From Candidatus Pacebacteria bacterium GW2011_GWA1_46_10 (GTDB lineage Bacteria; Patescibacteriota; Microgenomatia; UBA1400; PJMF01): a stretch of DNA of 64,000 bases. The stretch spans positions 2,520 through 66,519 of the forward strand of contig LCLP01000002.1 in NCBI GenBank assembly GCA_001002135.1, in the 5' to 3' direction. This document shows positions 21,207-49,888 of this stretch, piece after piece. Below the pieces are notes generated by a model that was not told where the DNA came from, searched no databases, and was given only the letters and a program-made list of their open reading frames with translations. How positions within the stretch are numbered: the stretch's first letter is position 1; each line of letters starts with the position of its first letter. Position numbers and translations under genes: made by a program.

Positions 21207-21212
21207 GATAGT

Positions 21213-21659
21213 ATGGTAAAAATCTTGTCACACCAAGAGTTTCTCAAAACCTTTATCAACGTGCCGCGGGTGTCGGTCAATTTATTAATTGAAGATAAAC
21301 AAGGAAAACTGCTTTTAACCCAGCGCGCCATCACCCCCGGAGTAGGGAAGTGGCATTACCCTGGAGGATTCTTACTCAAAGGGGAAACAATCGAAGCCTG
21401 TCTCAAGCGATTAGCTAAGCGCGAGTTTAACTATGACCTCAAAGAAGCCCCTGAGTTTGTCGGCGTCTTTGAAAATCTAGCCGGTGACCCCCGCGGCCAC
21501 GTCATTGATCTGATGTATCGGTTAAAACTCAATCACCAAATCCCACTCAACGCTACCACCGAGACCAAAGCCGCTCAGTATTTCGATCGCATCCCCAAAG
21601 AGATTGGTTTTAATCACCACGAAACGCTGTTAAAATTGGGCTACAAAGTGGAGGAATAG
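21213..21659 (+). CDS. NUDIX hydrolase
   Basis: Nudix-box-like GGFLLKGETIEACLKRLAKREFNYDL. Confidence 0.65.
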   Translation: MVKILSHQEFLKTFINVPRVSVNLLIEDKQGKLLLTQRAITPGVGKWHYPGGFLLKGETIEACLKRLAKREFNYDLKEAPEFVGVFENLAGDPRGHVIDLMYRLKLNHQIPLNATTETKAAQYFDRIPKEIGFNHHETLLKLGYKVEE

Positions 21660-39361: not shown

Positions 39362-39993
39362 AACAGTATCAATATTTACTCTTTGATTGGGATGGTTGTC
39401 TTGCTCAAACTCTGCCAATTTGGTTAGACGCCTACAAAGTAGTTTACGCAGCAGCTGGTGTTTTTCCTACCGATCAAGAAATAACCTTTCACTTTGGTGA
39501 CTGGGAAGCTCCCAAATACTATGGATTGGACGTCAAAAAAACTTTTGAAAAAATTGACGCTAGAGCACAGAAAGCGCTGGAGAAAGTAGCACTTTATGAA
39601 GGAGCTTATGATTTGCTTCATAAACTCAGGCCAATAAAAAAACTCGCCTTGCTTTCTAGCTCGGAAAAAATAACTTTAGAATATGGTTTAAAACATAATA
39701 AACTCGATAATTTCTTTGATGTTGTTATTTCCGGAGACGAGGTGCAAAATCACAAGCCTCATCCAGAAGTGATAAAAAAAGGACTGGCGGCTTTGGGTGG
39801 AAAAGAAGACATGGCAATCATGATTGGTGATTCAAGGAAAGATTTAGAGGCCGCTCAAAACGCCGGCATTGATTCTGTGCTCGTATATCCACCAGAAAAC
39901 AAAGTTTTCTATAATCTAGATGAGTTAAAAAAGTATCAACCAACGTATACTGTTTTTAGTTTTAATGAGCTGGAAAAAATACTGATACCATGA
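39358..39993 (+). CDS. HAD-superfamily hydrolase (phosphatase, subfamily IA-like)
   Basis: Motif I LFDWDG. Motif III/IV region (K...GDSRKDLEAAQNAG). Overlaps the uvrA stop by 4 nt. Confidence 0.7.
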   Translation: MKQYQYLLFDWDGCLAQTLPIWLDAYKVVYAAAGVFPTDQEITFHFGDWEAPKYYGLDVKKTFEKIDARAQKALEKVALYEGAYDLLHKLRPIKKLALLSSSEKITLEYGLKHNKLDNFFDVVISGDEVQNHKPHPEVIKKGLAALGGKEDMAIMIGDSRKDLEAAQNAGIDSVLVYPPENKVFYNLDELKKYQPTYTVFSFNELEKILIP

Positions 39994-41873
39994 ATAAACT
40001 ACTTCGACAGTTTGTTTACCTCCTTCTCTCATTTATTATTCTCGTTTCACCACTCGCCACTATTGTTCAACCAGTTGCCGCTCAAACAGAAACCACCAAA
40101 GCTTTCGAAAACTCCCTGACCACTACTTACACCGTTCAAGCCAACGGTGACACCCTTGTTCAACACAATTTCTCGATCAAAAACCTCACTCCGACCTATT
40201 ATGTCAGCCGACATGGCCTACGCATCAGTTCACCTAATATTAAAAGCGTCAAGGTCTCCGACAGGAGCGGTGAGATTCCCGCCGAGGTCACCCAAACCGA
40301 CAACCAAACTAATATCGGTATCACTTTCCCCAACGAAGTGGTGGGGGAAGGCAAAATTCGGCAATTCACCATTACCTATCTCAACCCTGATCTAGCACAA
40401 ATTCATGGCCGCGTTTTGGAGGTGGCCATCCCGCGGCAAGCCGACCCCACTGCGTACGATCACACTACCGTTATTTTGAACACTCCCTTAAGTTATGGTT
40501 CGCCTTCACGCGTCACACCAAACAGTAATTACAGCGCCACTTTCAAGGGCAATCAAGTCCAACTTACTTTCAGTGACTTGAACGGCAGTGGGGTGTGGGC
40601 CATCTTCGGCACCGAGCAAGTGTTTGATTTGAAATTTCGTTACTTTTTGGAAAACAATGACTCGCAACCAGTGTTGATGCAAGTGGCTCTGCCGCCGGAT
40701 ACAGCCTTTCAACGCCTGAATTATACTCAGCTTGATCCCAAACCAAAGGAAATTGAACTCGACGAGGACGGCAACTGGCTGGCCACTTTCTATCTAGGCG
40801 GCAACACTGCTCAAACAGTCACAGCATCAGCCACGGCCCTGCTGACACTGGAGCCAAATAACCTTGTTCCCATCCCATCACCACAACCTTTTCACACCCA
40901 AGCCCAACCATTTTGGGACATTAATAACAGCACCCTCCAAGCTTTGGCTAAAGAATACACTACCCCTCAGTCTATTTATGATTATGTGGTCAACACTTTG
41001 GAGTATTCTTTGCCGGAATCGACCGATCAACTGCAGCGAAAAGGTGCCGTTCAAGCTCTAAGTGCCTCGGCCCAAACCGCTTGCCAAGAGTTCTCCGATT
41101 TATTTATCGCTCTTGCCAGAGCCAATCACATTCCTTCACGCTTAGTGACCGGCTATGCCTACACCGAAAACAGTGATTTACGACCATTGAGCTTGGTGGA
41201 GGATGTTCTGCATGCTTGGCCGGAGTACTGGCAGGTCGAGAAAAATATCTGGCAACCCATCGATCCCACTTGGGAAAACACCACCGGCGGCGTTGATTAC
41301 TTCAACCAATTTGATCTTAACCACATCGTGCTGGCCATCAACGGGAAATCAAGCAGTCTGCCATATCCTGCTGGCTCTTACAAAACCGCCGAAAATTCGG
41401 AAAAAACCCTCGAAGTCACTTTCGGCACCGTTTTCCCAGTGCAAAGACCTGACATCACGGTGGTGGTTGAACCGCACCAAACCGCCGTCAGCCAACTACC
41501 AGGCTTTTATGACCTAAAACTGGAAAATATTACTGGGGCTGCTTGGTATGACGTTTCATTCGACGTCACGGCAGGTGGATCGCAAGTCAGAGTCTTTAGC
41601 TCCACCCAATTGAAAGCCCTGCTGCCATACCAAACCGTGACCATTCCGCTTTTTGTTTATAATACCCAAGGGACTTGGCCAACCAAAGATCAACTCACTA
41701 TCACGGTGAAGGTTGGTCAAGACCAAGTTCTCTCAACTGATGCCGAAATCACCAACGCACCCTACTTCACCCAATACCTCGCGCACCCATACACCCTCGC
41801 TTCCCTGGGCGCACTCTTCGTCCTCTTGGCCCTCGGCACCGGGAGTCTACTCGTTCTTCGACGCAAACGCTGA
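39990..41873 (+). CDS. secreted, C-terminally membrane-anchored transglutaminase-like cysteine-protease-fold protein
   Basis: N-terminal signal peptide. Transglutaminase core C(QEFSDLFIALARANHIPSRLVTGYAY)...H(AWPEYWQ)...D(PTW). C-terminal TM plus basic tail (LGALFVLLALGTGSLLVLRRKR). Confidence 0.65.
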   Translation: MNKLLRQFVYLLLSFIILVSPLATIVQPVAAQTETTKAFENSLTTTYTVQANGDTLVQHNFSIKNLTPTYYVSRHGLRISSPNIKSVKVSDRSGEIPAEVTQTDNQTNIGITFPNEVVGEGKIRQFTITYLNPDLAQIHGRVLEVAIPRQADPTAYDHTTVILNTPLSYGSPSRVTPNSNYSATFKGNQVQLTFSDLNGSGVWAIFGTEQVFDLKFRYFLENNDSQPVLMQVALPPDTAFQRLNYTQLDPKPKEIELDEDGNWLATFYLGGNTAQTVTASATALLTLEPNNLVPIPSPQPFHTQAQPFWDINNSTLQALAKEYTTPQSIYDYVVNTLEYSLPESTDQLQRKGAVQALSASAQTACQEFSDLFIALARANHIPSRLVTGYAYTENSDLRPLSLVEDVLHAWPEYWQVEKNIWQPIDPTWENTTGGVDYFNQFDLNHIVLAINGKSSSLPYPAGSYKTAENSEKTLEVTFGTVFPVQRPDITVVVEPHQTAVSQLPGFYDLKLENITGAAWYDVSFDVTAGGSQVRVFSSTQLKALLPYQTVTIPLFVYNTQGTWPTKDQLTITVKVGQDQVLSTDAEITNAPYFTQYLAHPYTLASLGALFVLLALGTGSLLVLRRKR

Positions 41874-43098
41874 AATCCTTTACGTCGGCAAGGCCAAAAA
41901 CCTCAAAAATCGCATTAAGAGTTATACCCAATATCAACAGCTTGCTCCCCGGATTAAGAAGTTAGTCACTTCAGCTAAACGAGTCAAGTTTGAAGTGCTG
42001 GACAGTGAGTTGGAAGCGCTCTTGATTGAGGCCGAGCTGGTCAGGGTTCATCAGCCATTTTTTAATATCCGTCTCAAAGATGATAAGTCACCGATTTACT
42101 TGGTGATCACTACTCATGAACAGTATCCCCGGGTCTTGCGAAAACGCAAAACCGATTTGGTCAAAGAAAAACCAACCGGCACTGTGTTAGGACCGTTTCA
42201 AAGTAGCTTTAGCTTAAACGAAGTGCTGAAAATTGCCCGCCGCATCTTTCCTTGGTGCGCTGATCCTGGCACCGGTCGACCATGCTTTTACTACCACCTT
42301 GATCTGTGTCCTGGCGCGTGTGTTGGCGAGACTACACCTGAAGACTACCGAGCCAACATTGACTCGCTGATCCTTTTTTTGCGTGGGAAAAAGAAAGCAG
42401 TGCTGCGTGATCTAACAACCAAAATGAAAACAGCGGCCGATCGACAACACTTTGAAAAGGCTCAACAGTACAAGGAAAAAATTCAACATACCCAAGAAGT
42501 GACTAAAAAACAATACCGACTCGCGCCCTCATTAGTTTTACCCGGCTTTGGCATGCGGCAAATTGAGCAAGGTTTAGTGGAACTGCAAAAAATCCTGCAA
42601 ACGTATACCAGTCTGCCAAAGGCTAAAAAACTCACCCGCATCGAAGGCTATGATGTGAGTAATATCCAAGGCAAAAATGCAGCCGTTTCTTTGGTGGTTT
42701 TCGAAAACGGGCAACCAGATAAAAAGCAATATCGACTTTTCAATATTTACACCATCGAAACAGCCAACGACTACCAGATGCTCCAAGAAGCACTCCAGCG
42801 TCGCCAAAACCACCCGGAGTGGAAAAAACCAGCTTTAGTGATGATTGATGGGGGAAAGGGACAAGTGAGGGCAGCTCTGTCCGTATGGCAATGGAGCAAT
42901 CCTATTATTGGTCTGGCCAAAAACCCTGATCGACTGATCGTGCCAACGAGTAAAGAGGGCAGAAAAATTACCTATCAAGTGCTGTCGCTGCCAGCCAGTC
43001 ATCCAGCCCTGCAACTAATCCAACGCATTCGCAATGAGTCGCACCGTTTTGCCCAACAGCAATTTCACCGCCGCCACCAGAAACAACTCCTTAAATAA
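41740..43098 (+). CDS. uvrC: excinuclease ABC subunit C (short form lacking the C-terminal HhH domain); 5' end overlaps the upstream gene
   Basis: GIY-YIG motif PGVYSFFDANAEILYVGKAKNLKNRIKSY starts at 41839. Shows the UvrB-interacting region and the RNase-H-like nuclease region (MIDGGKGQ...RNESHRFAQQQ). First in-frame ATG is 41740 (TTG at 41713), giving an overlap of at least 134 nt with the transglutaminase-like gene in another frame. Confidence 0.75.
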   Translation: MPKSPTHPTSPNTSRTHTPSLPWAHSSSSWPSAPGVYSFFDANAEILYVGKAKNLKNRIKSYTQYQQLAPRIKKLVTSAKRVKFEVLDSELEALLIEAELVRVHQPFFNIRLKDDKSPIYLVITTHEQYPRVLRKRKTDLVKEKPTGTVLGPFQSSFSLNEVLKIARRIFPWCADPGTGRPCFYYHLDLCPGACVGETTPEDYRANIDSLILFLRGKKKAVLRDLTTKMKTAADRQHFEKAQQYKEKIQHTQEVTKKQYRLAPSLVLPGFGMRQIEQGLVELQKILQTYTSLPKAKKLTRIEGYDVSNIQGKNAAVSLVVFENGQPDKKQYRLFNIYTIETANDYQMLQEALQRRQNHPEWKKPALVMIDGGKGQVRAALSVWQWSNPIIGLAKNPDRLIVPTSKEGRKITYQVLSLPASHPALQLIQRIRNESHRFAQQQFHRRHQKQLLK

Positions 43099-43115: not shown

Positions 43116-43478
43116 ATGAAACTGCTGCGCCCCATTATCATTACCGGCGCCAGCCTCTGGCTGCTGTCTTATTTTTTGCCCACCATTACCATTGTTGACT
43201 GGACCACGCTGCTGTTAGCCAGCATCGTGTTGGTTATCCTCAACAGCTTTATCAAACCCGTCTTAAAACTGCTGTTTCTCCCTATCAACATTGTGACACT
43301 GGGTTTTTTCTCTGTGGTCATCAATGTCGGGCTCTTGTGGTTGGCCACTTACCTTGTTCCTGGTTTCACCATTAGTAACATGGTTGTTTTCGGCTTTCAT
43401 CTCAACCAATTTTTCTCGATTTTGTTTGTTTCTATACTGATTAGTTTCATCCAATCTCTCTTTTCCTTTGTCTTGTGA
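43116..43478 (+). CDS. DUF360 / phage-holin-4-like small membrane protein
   Basis: 4-TM 120-aa protein. WLATYLVPGFTIS matches the holin-4_2/DUF360 signature. Confidence 0.45.
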   Translation: MKLLRPIIITGASLWLLSYFLPTITIVDWTTLLLASIVLVILNSFIKPVLKLLFLPINIVTLGFFSVVINVGLLWLATYLVPGFTISNMVVFGFHLNQFFSILFVSILISFIQSLFSFVL

Positions 43479-43497: not shown

Positions 43498-44427
43498 ATG
43501 AAGAAATTGATAGCTGCTTTTTTGGTGGGTCTGACTGCTTTTTTGCTGGCTACTTCCCTTAGTTTCGCTCAAACTGCTGATTTACTTGAGGAAATCTTTG
43601 ATGCCTCGCCTGGCGCTGCGGCCACCGAAGAGGGGAGCCTGGCTTCCGCGTCAGCCCAAGCCGAACAGCAACTAAAAGAGAAGAAAGATCAAGATATTAC
43701 CGATACCAGCGGTACCAAAAAGGGCAAACTGGCCACATTTCTTGATGAACACCCGATTGGGTCGCTCTCTTGGTACAATCCGCTTCAGCATGCCATTCGG
43801 GAAGCTGTGGGTAATGGCCTCCCTGCCAACATTATTGTCCTGCTGCTACTGTTCCCAATGATTACCTCATTGATTGCTTTCGCCCGACACGTCATTGGTT
43901 TGAAAGGTTTTGGCGTCTTTATTCCTGCTGTGTTGTCGGTGGCTTTTGCTTCTACTGGGATTCTTACCGGCGCAGTAGTTTTTATTATTGTTTTATTGGC
44001 CACCACGATCGCCAAGCTCTCGGTGAAACGGCTCCGTTTACCTCTTTTACCGAGAACTGCCATGTTGTTGTGGGTGGTGAGTCTACTGGTGGCACTCACC
44101 CTGATTGCTTCTTCATGGTTTGGAACAGCCTCACTGTTAACCCTCAATATTTTCCCCATCCTGATCGTGATGCTTATTACCGAAAACTTCATTAGTACTC
44201 AACTATTTAACAGTCAAAAAGAAGCTCTGAGTATTACTTTTGAAACACTACTAGTGGCTGTTTTGGGTGCTTTTATCATTAATATGGAGACCATCCAACA
44301 GTTTGTCCTGTTGTATCCTGAACTCAGTCTCATTGCCGTAGCGATTATCAACATTCTCGTTGGTCGATATACCGGACTCCGATTACTGGAGAAAACCCGT
44401 TTTCAGTCCATCATTGAAGAAGAGTGA
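43498..44427 (+). CDS. signal-peptide plus polytopic (about 7-TM) membrane protein, first gene of the ATP-grasp/QEGLA module
   Basis: Cleavable-looking signal peptide, an acidic roughly 85-aa extracytoplasmic segment, then about 7 TM helices. Stop at 44427 sits 8 nt before the RBS/ATG of the ATP-grasp gene. Confidence 0.45.
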   Translation: MKKLIAAFLVGLTAFLLATSLSFAQTADLLEEIFDASPGAAATEEGSLASASAQAEQQLKEKKDQDITDTSGTKKGKLATFLDEHPIGSLSWYNPLQHAIREAVGNGLPANIIVLLLLFPMITSLIAFARHVIGLKGFGVFIPAVLSVAFASTGILTGAVVFIIVLLATTIAKLSVKRLRLPLLPRTAMLLWVVSLLVALTLIASSWFGTASLLTLNIFPILIVMLITENFISTQLFNSQKEALSITFETLLVAVLGAFIINMETIQQFVLLYPELSLIAVAIINILVGRYTGLRLLEKTRFQSIIEEE

Positions 44428-44437
44428 GGAGTGTCAC

Positions 44438-45718
44438 ATGGTCTTGGAAAAAGACATTTTGGGAATGAACGCCCGCAACCAGCTCTTCGTTCCTCTCAAC
44501 CCGCCGCGAGCCGCGGCGATTTGTAAATCAAAATATGCGACCAAGCTCCTCCTGCAAAGCAAAAACATTCCCACTGCTGAGATTTACGGGGTGTTGGGTA
44601 CTCAGGAAGACATTGATGAATTTGATTGGCACAAACTGACCAAAGACTTTGTGATCAAGCCGACCAACGGCCATGCCGGCAAGGGAGTGATTGCTTTCCG
44701 TCATCAACACGCTGACAAAGAACATTGGACCGACGTGGTCGGTAAAACGTGGAGCCTGGATGACATTAAACTGCACTCGGCTGATATTTTGGCCGGCCAA
44801 TACAGCACCCATGGCTCCAATCACAACATCATCGTCGAAGAAAGGGTGCCTATTCATCCCAAACTGCTGAAATATACGTATAAAGGTACGCCAGATACTC
44901 GCGTGATTGTTTTCAATAGTGTGCCGGTGATGGCTATGCTCCGGCTGCCAACCGAAGAATCAGAAGGCCGTGCTAACGTCAGCCAAGGGGCGATTGCAGT
45001 TGGCATTGATATTGCCACCGGCATTACTACTCACGCCGTCGCTCACAAGAATCAACCAATTCAATTTCTGCCCAATACCAAACTAAAACTCAACGGCATC
45101 CAAATTCCATTCTGGCAACAAGTTTTAAAAATCGCTGTTGAAGCGGCTCGCGCGGCTGAACTGACTTTTACCGGAGTTGACCTGTTTGTCCACAAAGAAA
45201 AAGGTCCCATGGTAGTTGAGTTGAATGCCTATCCTGGCCTCTCGATCCAGATGGCTAATCGTGAGGGATTAAAACGCCGATTGGAAAGAGTCCAAGACCT
45301 TAATGTCCTGAATGCCGACCATGGTGTGAAAATCGGACAAGCGCTCTTTGCTGAACACTTTGCTACCAAAATCGAGGCCAAAGGGGAGGTGCCAATTCTA
45401 AATACTGAAGAAACTATCACTGTGTACGGTGACAATCGCCATAAAATTGAAGCCAAAGCGCTCATTAACACTGGTCGTTTCCGCACAGCTATTGCGAGCA
45501 GTCTGGCTAAAGAGTTAGCGCTGATTGAGGTTGATGACCTGCTGTGGTTTCAACAAGTTTCCGGTGAGGGGAAACGTCCCGTCATTGAACTGAAGTTTCG
45601 TCTTAAAGGAAAAACTGTCGAGACCTCCGCTGTCGTTTCCCGAAAACTAGACAGTGCCGCGCAAAAGATTGAAGTGGGGAGAAAGGACTTGTCGGGTTTT
45701 GTGATCCGACCAGCGTAA
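44438..45718 (+). CDS. RimK-like ATP-grasp ligase (alpha-L-glutamate-ligase-like family)
   Basis: ATP-grasp motifs FVIKPTNGHAGKGV, VEERVPIHP and VELNAYPGLSIQ. GAGGAG RBS 7 nt upstream of ATG 44438. Extra C-terminal roughly 120 aa. Confidence 0.7.
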   Translation: MVLEKDILGMNARNQLFVPLNPPRAAAICKSKYATKLLLQSKNIPTAEIYGVLGTQEDIDEFDWHKLTKDFVIKPTNGHAGKGVIAFRHQHADKEHWTDVVGKTWSLDDIKLHSADILAGQYSTHGSNHNIIVEERVPIHPKLLKYTYKGTPDTRVIVFNSVPVMAMLRLPTEESEGRANVSQGAIAVGIDIATGITTHAVAHKNQPIQFLPNTKLKLNGIQIPFWQQVLKIAVEAARAAELTFTGVDLFVHKEKGPMVVELNAYPGLSIQMANREGLKRRLERVQDLNVLNADHGVKIGQALFAEHFATKIEAKGEVPILNTEETITVYGDNRHKIEAKALINTGRFRTAIASSLAKELALIEVDDLLWFQQVSGEGKRPVIELKFRLKGKTVETSAVVSRKLDSAAQKIEVGRKDLSGFVIRPA

Positions 45719-45721
45719 ATC

Positions 45722-46687
45722 ATGGGACTAGTAGATGACTTAAATCCCACCAACTATCAAGAGGAAAAACAGCGTTTCCTCAACAATCCCACTTTTAACC
45801 CTCAGTTTCACTACAAACGAGAGTTTTCTCAAGAAGAACTGTCCCGCCACGGCTTTCCGGCTGATGGCTACCAACAACTGGCGCAACGCATCATTGACGC
45901 CACCTTTCAACAGTTCACTCCCCATGAGCTCCAAGCCCAAAGAGGTCGGTTGCTGACCCAAGATAAAGTGACAGCGGCCATCCAGCAGTTCCTTCAAGCC
46001 CACAGCTTAGAAAACCGTTTTCCGATTGTGTGGTCAGACAAGTTTGTCAGCCGGGCCTCAATCGACGCCCACAACACTATTCGTCTGCGCCTCCCTTGCA
46101 GTGTGTACGAAGAAGATCTGAGTGGTTTGATTTACCACGAAATCGGCACACACGTCTTGCGACGGGTAAACTACGAACAACAGCCATGGTACAAAAAGAA
46201 ACATCAGTTTGGTTTTTCTCCACACCTGAAAACAGAAGAGGGGATGGCCGTCCTACACTCGCTGTTTCCCAAAACCGAAGTCTTTGCCTATCGTCCAGCT
46301 ATCTATCACTTGGCTACGTACAAAGCTCAAGAAGGCTCATTTCTGGATGTGTGGCAATTCCTACTGCAATACTATGCCGAAGATCAGGAAACGGCTTTTA
46401 CGATCGCGGTCAAAAAAAAGCGCGGGCTGACCGATACCAGTCAGCCGGGTGGCTTTACCAAAGATCTAGTGTACTTTGAGGGCTTTGTGGATATCACTCG
46501 TTTCATGATTGCCAATCATTTTCCGCTCAAAGCACTTTACTTAGGCAAACTTTCCTGGCGAGACGTGGACCGCGCGCAGAAACTCAACCCAGATTACGAG
46601 CCGTTGCTGCCAATTTTTTACACCCGCGATCCAGCGGCGTACGAGCGGCGGGTCCGAGAGATCGCCAAAACAAACTTCCTCATTTAG
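45722..46687 (+). CDS. DUF1704 / QEGLA-motif protein with an HExxH zincin-like motif
   Basis: HEIGTH (HExxH) and TEEGMAV (QEGLA-like). Lies 3 nt downstream of the ATP-grasp stop. Confidence 0.6.
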   Translation: MGLVDDLNPTNYQEEKQRFLNNPTFNPQFHYKREFSQEELSRHGFPADGYQQLAQRIIDATFQQFTPHELQAQRGRLLTQDKVTAAIQQFLQAHSLENRFPIVWSDKFVSRASIDAHNTIRLRLPCSVYEEDLSGLIYHEIGTHVLRRVNYEQQPWYKKKHQFGFSPHLKTEEGMAVLHSLFPKTEVFAYRPAIYHLATYKAQEGSFLDVWQFLLQYYAEDQETAFTIAVKKKRGLTDTSQPGGFTKDLVYFEGFVDITRFMIANHFPLKALYLGKLSWRDVDRAQKLNPDYEPLLPIFYTRDPAAYERRVREIAKTNFLI

Positions 46688-48096: not shown

Positions 48097-48384
48097 ACCT
48101 CCACTTCACAATTCTCGGTTCAAAAACTGAGAATTCTCGGCATTCGCAGATAAGGACTAGCGCCTTTCGCAGGGGCTCATCCTTTTTTCTGGTGAAGCGC
48201 ACTTTAACAAGTAAAGACTCAACAGCACCATCATGATTTCTGAAATAAACATGGTGGTGGAAATGCAAACAATTTGATGGATTTTATTTTGTGTAAAATC
48301 CGTTAATTCCAAATTGATAATTTGAATTGAACTTATTCAGTAAAATGAATGAGAAGGATTCAAACCTCAATAAGTTAAACTTTT

Positions 48385-49888
<1,504 letters not shown>

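Follow-up and report, generated by a model that had tools for sequence, protein, structure and literature searches.

A putative Patescibacteria variant of the rloBC-type system, with a Glu-terminated membrane protein tail as the candidate acceptor for a ligase and a MATCAP-type peptidase

We analyzed a 64,000-nucleotide (nt) stretch of DNA from Candidatus Pacebacteria bacterium GW2011_GWA1_46_10 (contig LCLP01000002.1, positions 2,520 to 66,519), referred to here as the window, and focused on three genes that lie close together on its forward strand. They encode a membrane protein with seven transmembrane segments (7TM), an ATP-grasp ligase, and a MATCAP-type metallopeptidase. A sequence-only reading of the window had located these genes, with spacers of 10 nt and 3 nt and a GAGGAG ribosome-binding site on the middle gene, and we found all of these where it had put them. 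It had also described the module as uncharacterized. This description did not hold: the homologous rloABC system of Pseudomonas aeruginosa was characterized genetically and structurally in 2025 (PMC12239564), and DUF1704, the family of the peptidase, is the MATCAP/TMCP tubulin carboxypeptidase family (PMC10499314). In rloABC, RloA is a secreted retropepsin, RloB joins an inactive transglutaminase domain to a 7TM module, and RloC is an ATP-grasp protein (PMC12239564). The system has a part in tolerance of hypo-osmotic conditions, in cell shape, and in biofilm. By homology, the module in the window appears to be a variant of this rloBC-type system from the Patescibacteria, also called the candidate phyla radiation (CPR). 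Since it has homologs of the RloB 7TM module and of RloC, together with a predicted retropepsin fold, all three rlo components are present in rearranged form. The features are given below by their positions in the window (aa, amino acids; ORF, open reading frame).

43498..44427, + strand: gene of a membrane protein of the 7TM_transglut family, 309-aa ORF
44362..44424, + strand: cytoplasmic C-terminal tail of the 7TM protein, GRYTGLRLLEKTRFQSIIEEE, 21 residues, candidate acceptor for the ligase and the MATCAP
44416..44424, + strand: terminal Glu3 of the 7TM tail (…IIEEE), after the conserved juxtamembrane RLLE..RF
44426..44431, + strand: Shine-Dalgarno-like GAGGAG of the ligase gene, 6 nt ahead of the ATG at 44438, by sequence inspection
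44438..45718, + strand: ligase gene, 426-aa ORF with an ATG start
44438..45313, + strand: ATP-grasp ligase domain, RloC/TIGR02291-like, aa 1-292
45395..45715, + strand: predicted retropepsin-fold pseudo-protease domain fused to the ligase, aa ~320-426
45467..45475, + strand: NTG in place of the catalytic DTG, aa 344-346 of the ligase
45674..45688, + strand: retained GR(K)D motif of the pseudo-retropepsin
45722..46687, + strand: gene of the MATCAP-type peptidase, a cytoplasmic gluzincin carboxypeptidase, 321-aa ORF; PF08014, 95.5 bits (cutoff, 27)
46136..46153, + strand: HEIGTH motif, aa 139-144 of the peptidase
46232..46252, + strand: TEEGMAV motif, aa 171-177 of the peptidase

The signal peptide and 7TM layout claimed for the first protein were confirmed. 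Hydropathy gave a signal peptide (aa 1 to 25), an ectodomain of ~85 aa, seven hydrophobic segments (aa 110 to 288), and a cytoplasmic tail, and together with the positive-inside rule it predicted an N-out/C-in topology. The protein matched PF14402 (7TM_transglut), a family that the sequence-only reading had named for an HMM check, with 98.5 bits (cutoff, 25); its N-terminal 113 aa had no domain match. Against the hidden Markov model (HMM) for RloB, NF052267, it scored 64 bits (cutoff, 900) and matched model positions 315 to 507 only. An alignment that spans the RLLE..RF motif gave 32% identity (E = 7e-22) with the 7TM part of Legionella RloB. These similarities point to an equivalent of the RloB 7TM module without the inactive-transglutaminase domain.

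The ligase matched PF14397 (ATPgrasp_ST) with 214.9 bits (cutoff, 31.4). It had been assigned to the alpha-L-glutamate-ligase-like ATP-grasp clade; TIGR02291 was the best NCBIfam match, but the score of 251 bits was below the cutoff of 314. Against a Legionella RloC-like protein, the ligase domain showed 36% identity (E = 7e-58), and residues K74, E134/E135, D248, E261, and N263, which may be the ATP/Mg2+ ligands, were invariant in 42 homologs. Among the 120 nearest relatives, the ligase was 62 to 90% identical. Foldseek gave RimK, the closest solved fold, along with cyanophycin synthetase and ArgX/LysX as the top matches. RimK, cyanophycin synthetase, and LysX/ArgX all extend peptide or protein carboxylates. 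We rejected bona fide RimK as the identity of the ligase. The scores for NF007764 (21.8; cutoff, 331) and TIGR00768 (65; cutoff, 143) were far under the cutoffs, as the sequence-only reading would have it, and RimK sequences from the PDB gave only a local match (E = 2.5e-5).

That reading had treated the second protein as an ATP-grasp enzyme alone and had missed a fourth domain at aa ~320 to 426. Residues ~293 to 426 of the ligase were conserved in every homolog. They had no Pfam match at E values up to 10, a profile of the domain gave chance matches only against PDB sequences, and hhalign against a Legionella RloA gave a weak alignment (E = 0.026; probability, 1.9%). The PF05618 family HMM did not match the fused domain, which has NTGR at the catalytic position. 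AlphaFold modeled the region confidently, with a predicted local distance difference test score of 80 to 92 in the full model and 87.7 alone. Only a fold search and stand-alone paralogs identified the domain, as a retropepsin of the RimB/RloA kind. A motif search of the fused domain left 104 of 120 homologs assessable and failed in the other 16. The catalytic position held N in 99/104, S in 3/104, and D in 2/104 of these, and the N of NTG falls in the same alignment column as the D of the stand-alone DTGA paralogs. In P. aeruginosa, RloA D48N is catalytically inactive and served as the inactive control (PMC12239564). Two arginines follow the motif (NTG-R-x-R) where active enzymes carry Ala. 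In addition, the RPV and S(R/K)K positions, which match the polyglutamate (polyE)-coordinating R114 and R137 of RloA in a motif-level alignment, stay basic. Judging by these residues, the fused domain may be a polyE-binding pseudo-enzyme. No signal peptide was found on the ligase with its fused pseudo-retropepsin, and no stand-alone retropepsin copy was found in the 64-kilobase (kb) window.

The third protein belongs to PF08014, formerly DUF1704 and now named MATCAP. Its zincin motif had been described as HExxH, but HEIGTH reads HExxxH, the atypical motif of MATCAP/TMCP enzymes, which have an EEG as the third ligand (PMC10499314). Membership in the QEGLA family TIGR02421 (flavohemoglobin expression-modulating protein) was not upheld either (97 bits; cutoff, 338.65). 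The proposed zincin/carboxypeptidase fold, on the other hand, follows from direct homology to the solved structure of human MATCAP/KIAA0895L (7z5g), with an E value of 1e-43 over aa 7 to 319 and 32% identity over 320 aa. CPR members scored 132 to 150 bits against human MATCAP (31 to 33% identity) and 44 to 77 bits against the Legionella and Photobacterium QEGLA proteins (24 to 28% identity); human MATCAP itself scored 38 to 45 bits against the latter. An exhaustive search of 1.84 billion representatives found only 105 proteins that reached an E value of 1e-30. Eukaryote-type MATCAPs ranked roughly within the top 40 to 100 of that search, including one 84% identical to the human protein and several 47 to 69% identical. 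Sequence similarity thus places the peptidase of the window with the eukaryote-type (true) MATCAPs. Enzymes of the TMCP/MATCAP family act on the acidic tails of tubulin, from which they take off C-terminal residues, and they also deglutamylate (PMC10499314). The catalytic motifs were conserved in 114 to 116 of the 117 CPR homologs, and no signal peptide was found among the 117. A MATCAP of 323 aa (P0375) lies in the same 7TM-ligase-MATCAP module (L095:2836-5972) on a contig of 56% GC content with many ORFs that have no Pfam match. It was the closest to human MATCAP among the prokaryote-like (~320-aa) ones recovered (213 bits, 38% identity).

We asked how much weight the gene order can bear. 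The three genes sit in a co-directional array of uvrB, uvrA, a HAD hydrolase gene, a secreted transglutaminase-core protein gene, a short uvrC, and a DUF360 gene, and the array continues 3' of the module with mnmA, the 16S rRNA gene, clpB, and lon. Scans for promoters and terminators from 39.5 to 48.4 kb gave results at chance level and were uninformative on operon limits. Tight spacing within such a long array is therefore weak evidence, and the argument must rest on conservation. The closest homologs of all three proteins were from Patescibacteria (metagenome-assembled genomes of Pacebacteria, Paceibacterota, and Woesebacteria). We scanned one genome per GTDB species and found a relative of the ligase in at least 585 genomes; the locus counts that follow refer to the best 80 loci of these, scored with purpose-built HMMs. 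The 7TM gene was directly upstream of the ligase gene in 75/75 assessable loci, and a MATCAP gene was directly downstream in 51/72, which bears out the co-occurrence in related genomes that the earlier interpretation implied. DUF360 was found upstream in 56/72 assessable loci, and the transglutaminase-core gene with uvrC further upstream in 46/58. Homologs of each of the three genes number in the hundreds, and synteny of the 7TM-ligase pair holds in all related genomes that could be assessed; the three-gene module is thus far beyond chance. Several loci have the MATCAP gene without the transglutaminase/uvrC/DUF360 block. Therefore, the core is the 7TM protein and the ligase, with MATCAP as a common accessory.

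The loci that lack MATCAP show what may take its place. In four of them (L012, L017, L035, and L037), a stand-alone retropepsin of 125 to 148 aa occupies exactly the MATCAP slot. These stand-alone proteins are homologs of the ligase's own C-terminal domain with intact AK(I/V)DTGA and IGR.D motifs, and one copy matched PF05618 with 39 bits. In a basal MATCAP-less clade (9 loci), the fused domain itself carries D(T/S)GA. By contrast, D[TS]GA was found in the fused domain of 0/55 MATCAP-containing loci, all 55 of which have degenerate motifs (NTGR, NTSR, KTGR, DTKR, HTGR, or NTLR). Thus, the role of active peptidase alternates: it falls to MATCAP, to a stand-alone DTGA retropepsin, or to a fused retropepsin whose DTGA is intact. 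Three further proteins, P0468, P0469, and P0503 (787, 805, and 747 aa), are single chains that hold both ATPgrasp_ST and MATCAP; between the two, a degenerate domain resembling a retropepsin was detected by HMM in P0468 and P0503 and by eye only in P0469. This alternation and these fusions argue that the ligase and the peptidase act together in the cytoplasm and that MATCAP displaced the catalytic role of the retropepsin. The intact-motif character changes once on the ligase tree, so its correlation with MATCAP represents one evolutionary event. Two of the contigs with fusion genes (L093 and L094) were too short to show a 7TM neighbor. At a third (L091:2362-6329), the 7TM protein has an extracellular PKD-domain ectodomain, not the short ectodomain of the protein in the window.

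Some other features of these loci were observed. Six loci of the basal MATCAP-less group with intact DTGA (L077, L079, L080, L082, L084, and L086) have one or two extra RimK-like ATP-grasp genes after the ligase gene. One of them (L082:8269-10399) also has genes for an S-adenosylmethionine methyltransferase and a protein of ~200 aa, and similar ORFs occur in several of the others. Extra ATP-grasp genes are present in the MATCAP-containing loci L016, L055, L060, and L071 too, which suggests multi-ligase systems. Many contigs titled "uncultured Pseudomonadales bacterium" (L008, L010, L011, L013, and others) carry the Patescibacteria-type gene order with ligases that are 60 to 76% identical; one contig is labeled TM6 and one Vitreimonas, and the labels look unreliable.

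The tail of the 7TM protein is where a candidate substrate emerges. The 7TM gene is the sole ORF of at least 80 aa in the window that ends in EEE. Two other window ORFs of at least 80 aa end in two acidic residues: a NUDIX hydrolase ORF (21207-21659, + strand; ...YKVEE) and an unannotated ORF (125-592, - strand). Glu-terminated tails were found in 86 of 120 7TM homologs, in at least eight architectures of very different length. Among the 120 homologs these include IIEEE(E), ...SQEEE, ...DDQ(S/A)E, ...APEQEE, and KDEE, and the genome loci add ...PGLEE, ETEE, and LLNE/SVIE. Tails that end in Glu were present in 50/55 MATCAP-containing loci versus 3/19 MATCAP-lacking ones (Fisher p = 2e-9, a value that ignores phylogeny). 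The MATCAP-less tails are basic (KK/KR), and the tails of two classic rloB products that we examined, from Legionella and Aeromonas, neither of which has MATCAP, are not acidic. Two loci found independently of the tails, through the MATCAP search, follow the same pattern. The 7TM protein of L091, encoded 95 nt ahead of a ligase-MATCAP fusion gene, ends in ...HTEE, and that of L095 ends in ...IIDTEE, with MNTAR in the fused domain.

On this basis we give even chances to a cytoplasm-facing, membrane-tethered writer/eraser cycle that acts on Glu-rich C-terminal tails, in which the 7TM tail is the candidate acceptor. The identities of the parts are firm, and the substrate is what we infer. The ligase, as the writer, would add one or more glutamates, or another residue, to a C-terminal carboxylate, much as RimK does on RpsF. 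The dead retropepsin domain, with its extra arginines (NTG-R-x-R), would be a reader or scaffold that binds the acidic tail and does not cut it, and MATCAP, as the eraser, would trim the tail one residue at a time. The sequence-only reading had set this chemistry at the membrane and had suggested an envelope-modification or signaling system. An envelope location finds no support here: no signal peptide occurs on the ligase with its dead protease domain or on MATCAP, and the C-tail of the 7TM protein is predicted to be cytoplasmic. The chemistry would thus be close to the membrane but intracellular, at the inner membrane face. In the most speculative step, the acceptor would be the 7TM protein's own cytoplasmic tail (...IIEEE), and tail length would tune whatever the 7TM protein does. 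By analogy, that function is probably in envelope or osmotic homeostasis, a guess based on the rlo mutant phenotypes and on the low-salinity induction of a Photobacterium QEGLA/ATP-grasp pair.

Several observations do not fit well with this cycle. Five MATCAP-containing loci have tails that do not end in Glu. We considered degenerate MATCAPs as the cause and ruled this out, since the active-site motifs were intact in all five. The 7TM-ligase core also occurs with basic tails (KK/KR), so an acidic tail cannot be required for core function. In ~17/50 loci with Glu-ended tails, the terminal GAG/GAA codons double as the Shine-Dalgarno sequence of the ligase gene. There were few independent events: the Fitch minimum was six changes for MATCAP, six for the Glu-ended tail, and one for the intact fused motif. 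Lastly, the Pseudomonas eraser is periplasmic, which implies an exported product and not a cytoplasmic tail.

This last point leads to a possible, though doubtful, alternative, in which the system works by Rlo-like export. The ligase would make free poly-alpha-glutamate or a short peptide and the 7TM protein would export it or display it at the envelope as an osmoprotectant or wall modifier. MATCAP and the retropepsin would control only the cytoplasmic pool or the chain length, and the acidic 7TM tail would be a primer, a docking motif, or irrelevant. The authors of the rlo study considered free polyE a possible substrate (PMC12239564). Secretion of RloA in P. aeruginosa means that the rloBC product must reach the periplasm, the title of PDB entry 5zct indicates synthesis of free poly-alpha-Glu by RimK, and the core of 7TM protein and ligase is invariant irrespective of tail chemistry. 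However, all CPR forms of the eraser lack a signal peptide and are fused or adjacent to the cytoplasmic ligase, and export leaves the tracking of Glu-terminated tails with MATCAP unexplained.

It is also conceivable, but in our judgment unlikely, that the Glu tail is a by-product of translational coupling, with the ligase gene drawing its ribosome-binding site from purine-rich 3' codons of the 7TM gene and with the true substrate elsewhere. This would concern the substrate sub-claim only and is compatible with a writer/eraser cycle. The ~17 loci described above have GAGGAG or GAGGAA in the last codons, 9 to 16 nt before the ATG, and MATCAP-less clades have other purine-rich endings (AAA/AAG or AAGGAG). 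In the window, the GAGGAG overlaps the TGA stop codon of the 7TM gene. Coupling fails to account for the Glu-ended tails that persist at gaps of 19 to 27 nt (7 loci) and 95 nt (L091), with a gene overlap of -17 nt (the DDQSE clade), and where the Shine-Dalgarno sequence follows the stop codon, as it does in the window. Furthermore, long divergent tails (…SQEEE, …DDQSE, and …PGLEE) keep only the acidic end. Thus, we rejected the ribosome-binding site as a full explanation of the Glu tail, as it covers only about a third of cases.

Very improbable, to our mind, is RimK-type glutamylation of S6 or another soluble protein with the 7TM protein as only a regulator or anchor: RimK is the closest solved fold and pairs with the retropepsin RimB, and RimK-like ATP-grasp genes lie beside the module in basal clades, but the RimK models score far under their cutoffs, a 7TM gene accompanies the ligase gene in every case, no other window ORF of at least 80 aa ends in EEE, and no rpsF was recognized near the module, although the window was not searched systematically for rpsF. 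We give next to no credence to the idea that the genes are neighbors only through conserved CPR housekeeping synteny (uvrBA - uvrC - mnmA - 16S) and do no joint work, or that a surface polysaccharide is what the ligase amidates, an idea prompted by the Pfam name "sugar-transfer associated". The long co-directional array, the scans at chance level, and the many loci in which the transglutaminase-core, uvrC, and DUF360 genes travel with the module would agree with it, but the 7TM-ligase adjacency is kept from CPR to Gammaproteobacteria at 32 to 36% identity, some lineages have a ligase-MATCAP fusion, the module turns up again in unrelated contexts (L091 and L095), and no glycosyltransferase was found near the module.

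The writer/eraser cycle matters because of what was left open for rlo. In the 2025 study, rloB and rloC together make something toxic unless polyE-cleaving proteases remove the product, and the substrate was not identified there. RloA cleaves runs of at least eight Glu residues, both RimB and RloA cut polyE, and the defects of the rloA1-3 triple protease mutant are suppressed when either rloB or rloC is deleted (PMC12239564). The Patescibacteria variant offers a concrete and testable candidate for the rlo substrate, namely, the Glu-terminated tail of the 7TM partner, as well as natural experiments in the form of three interchangeable erasers and single-chain fusions. The module is kept in at least 585 species-level very small genomes with a ligase that is 62 to 90% identical, which argues for an important, unexplored function.

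Through the module, the family of the human tubulin detyrosinase is also connected with a bacterial operon of a ligase and a peptidase. Of the bacterial MATCAPs that we found, the one most similar to the human enzyme (38% identity) is in the same module, which suggests an origin for the eukaryotic eraser. We put forward only tentatively, as a speculation we rate as improbable, that the eukaryotic tubulin-tail code has a prokaryotic counterpart in this module, from which its eraser may also have evolved. In the module, a genome-encoded poly-Glu 7TM tail would be reversibly lengthened by the ligase, read by the dead retropepsin, and shortened by the MATCAP ortholog. If this is true, the tail would join RpsF and SdeA as the third substrate known for polyglutamylation in bacteria, and it would provide a model for what the rlo system acts on.

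Two upstream genes could be considered accessory to the module.

43116..43478, + strand: DUF360/Phage_holin_4_2 small membrane protein, PF04020, 81 bits (cutoff, 28.8), possible accessory
39990..41873, + strand: secreted, C-terminally anchored transglutaminase-core protein, PF01841, 66 bits, with Cys365/His408/Asp425 intact

The DUF360 gene had been noted 20 nt upstream as a possible part of the operon. It is present, with a spacing of 19 nt, and it is a frequent neighbor (56/72 loci) but not an obligatory one. The transglutaminase-core gene overlaps the upstream HAD gene by 4 nt, its stop codon lies immediately before or overlaps the start of uvrC, and the order uvrA-(HAD)-TGase-uvrC (TGase, transglutaminase) recurs in 46/58 related loci. 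Its membership in the module is doubtful, because it is syntenic but uvrC lies between. We rejected the idea that it is a detached RloB ectodomain: it had no BLASTP similarity to the inactive-transglutaminase domain of RloB, and it is missing from several MATCAP-containing loci. The UvrC protein (~41875-43098, + strand) is short, at ~407 aa. A Pfam scan found GIY-YIG, UVR, and UvrC RNase H domains in it but no C-terminal helix-hairpin-helix region; its start is ambiguous because of the overlap with the end of the TGase gene. Downstream, a full-length 16S rRNA gene (48382-49887, + strand) is followed by clpB, a tRNA gene, and lon. No 23S rRNA gene was found within the next 14 kb, so the rRNA genes appear to be unlinked.

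Parts of this picture were known. The sequence-only reading was right that a ligase, a metallopeptidase, and a 7TM protein form a module of a kind already recognized by comparative genomics. Neighborhoods of an ATP-grasp protein, a 7TM/inactive transglutaminase protein, and a peptidase were reportedly first described by Iyer et al. in 2009. With the general neighborhood and one characterized member known, the interest here lies mainly in a testable rlo substrate and the link to the tubulin code. In the literature that we searched, we did not find the CPR-wide architecture in which a dead retropepsin is fused to the ligase, the three-way alternation of erasers, triple fusions, the identity of the peptidase as MATCAP proper or its closeness to the eukaryotic enzymes, or a Glu-terminated tail that covaries with MATCAP. 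Searches for DUF1704 with ATP-grasp and MATCAP with ATP-grasp also returned nothing.

Compared with rloABC, the module shares a homologous 7TM module and ATP-grasp protein and the order of 7TM gene and then ligase gene. A Legionella adelaidensis plasmid has the classic operon of a DUF785 retropepsin, an inactive-transglutaminase plus 7TM protein, and an alpha-L-glutamate-ligase-like protein; the last two are the Legionella proteins to which the window's 7TM protein and ligase domain were compared above. The 7TM protein of the window has lost the inactive-transglutaminase ectodomain. Its retropepsin is fused to the ligase, cytoplasmic, and catalytically dead (D to N), whereas RloA is separate, secreted, and active, and a MATCAP carboxypeptidase has been added as the active peptidase. 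The host also differs: matches to RloB were reported as 96% Proteobacteria (PMC12239564), and the window is from an uncultured member of the Patescibacteria.

The RimK-RimB-RpsF system likewise consists of an ATP-grasp writer and a retropepsin eraser, both cytoplasmic, and has an acceptor, RpsF, that ends in Glu-Glu. RimK adds Glu to this EE terminus, and it is the closest solved fold to the ligase of the window. However, the HMM scores indicate that this ligase is no RimK ortholog. It is obligatorily paired with a 7TM protein, and its candidate acceptor is a membrane protein tail and not RpsF. In the LysX/ArgX-LysW systems, which are among the top fold matches, an ATP-grasp enzyme also acts on the C-terminal Glu of a dedicated partner, but these systems are biosynthetic, use a carrier protein, have no peptidase or 7TM partner, and belong to another ATP-grasp clade.

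The gammaproteobacterial QEGLA proteins (TIGR02421; Legionella and Photobacterium) share PF08014 and the HExxxH and (Q/E)EG motifs with the peptidase. They differ in having another partner ligase and a length of 430 to 660 aa. The Photobacterium QEGLA gene adjoins a gene for a GshB-like ATP-grasp protein and is induced at low salinity. In P. damselae, the QEGLA gene was upregulated 27-fold and the adjacent "glutathione synthase" (ATP-grasp) gene 38-fold at low salinity (PMC10308900). On a Photobacterium sp. DA100 replicon (L089:3044-6047), a 662-aa ORF (stop to stop) has the QEGLA domain as its C-terminal half and directly follows a gene for a GshB-like ATP-grasp protein.

The eukaryotic tubulin tail cycle, in which TTL/TTLL ATP-grasp ligases oppose the MATCAP/TMCP (KIAA0895L and KIAA0895) and CCP carboxypeptidases, has a true MATCAP-family eraser, with HExxxH and EEG, as does the module. 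In that cycle, too, residues are added to an acidic C-terminal tail (...EE) by an ATP-grasp enzyme and taken off again by a carboxypeptidase. The writer in the window, though, is of the ATPgrasp_ST/RloC type and not of the TTL family, no tubulin is present, and the bacterial MATCAPs lack the N-terminal extension of the eukaryotic enzymes.

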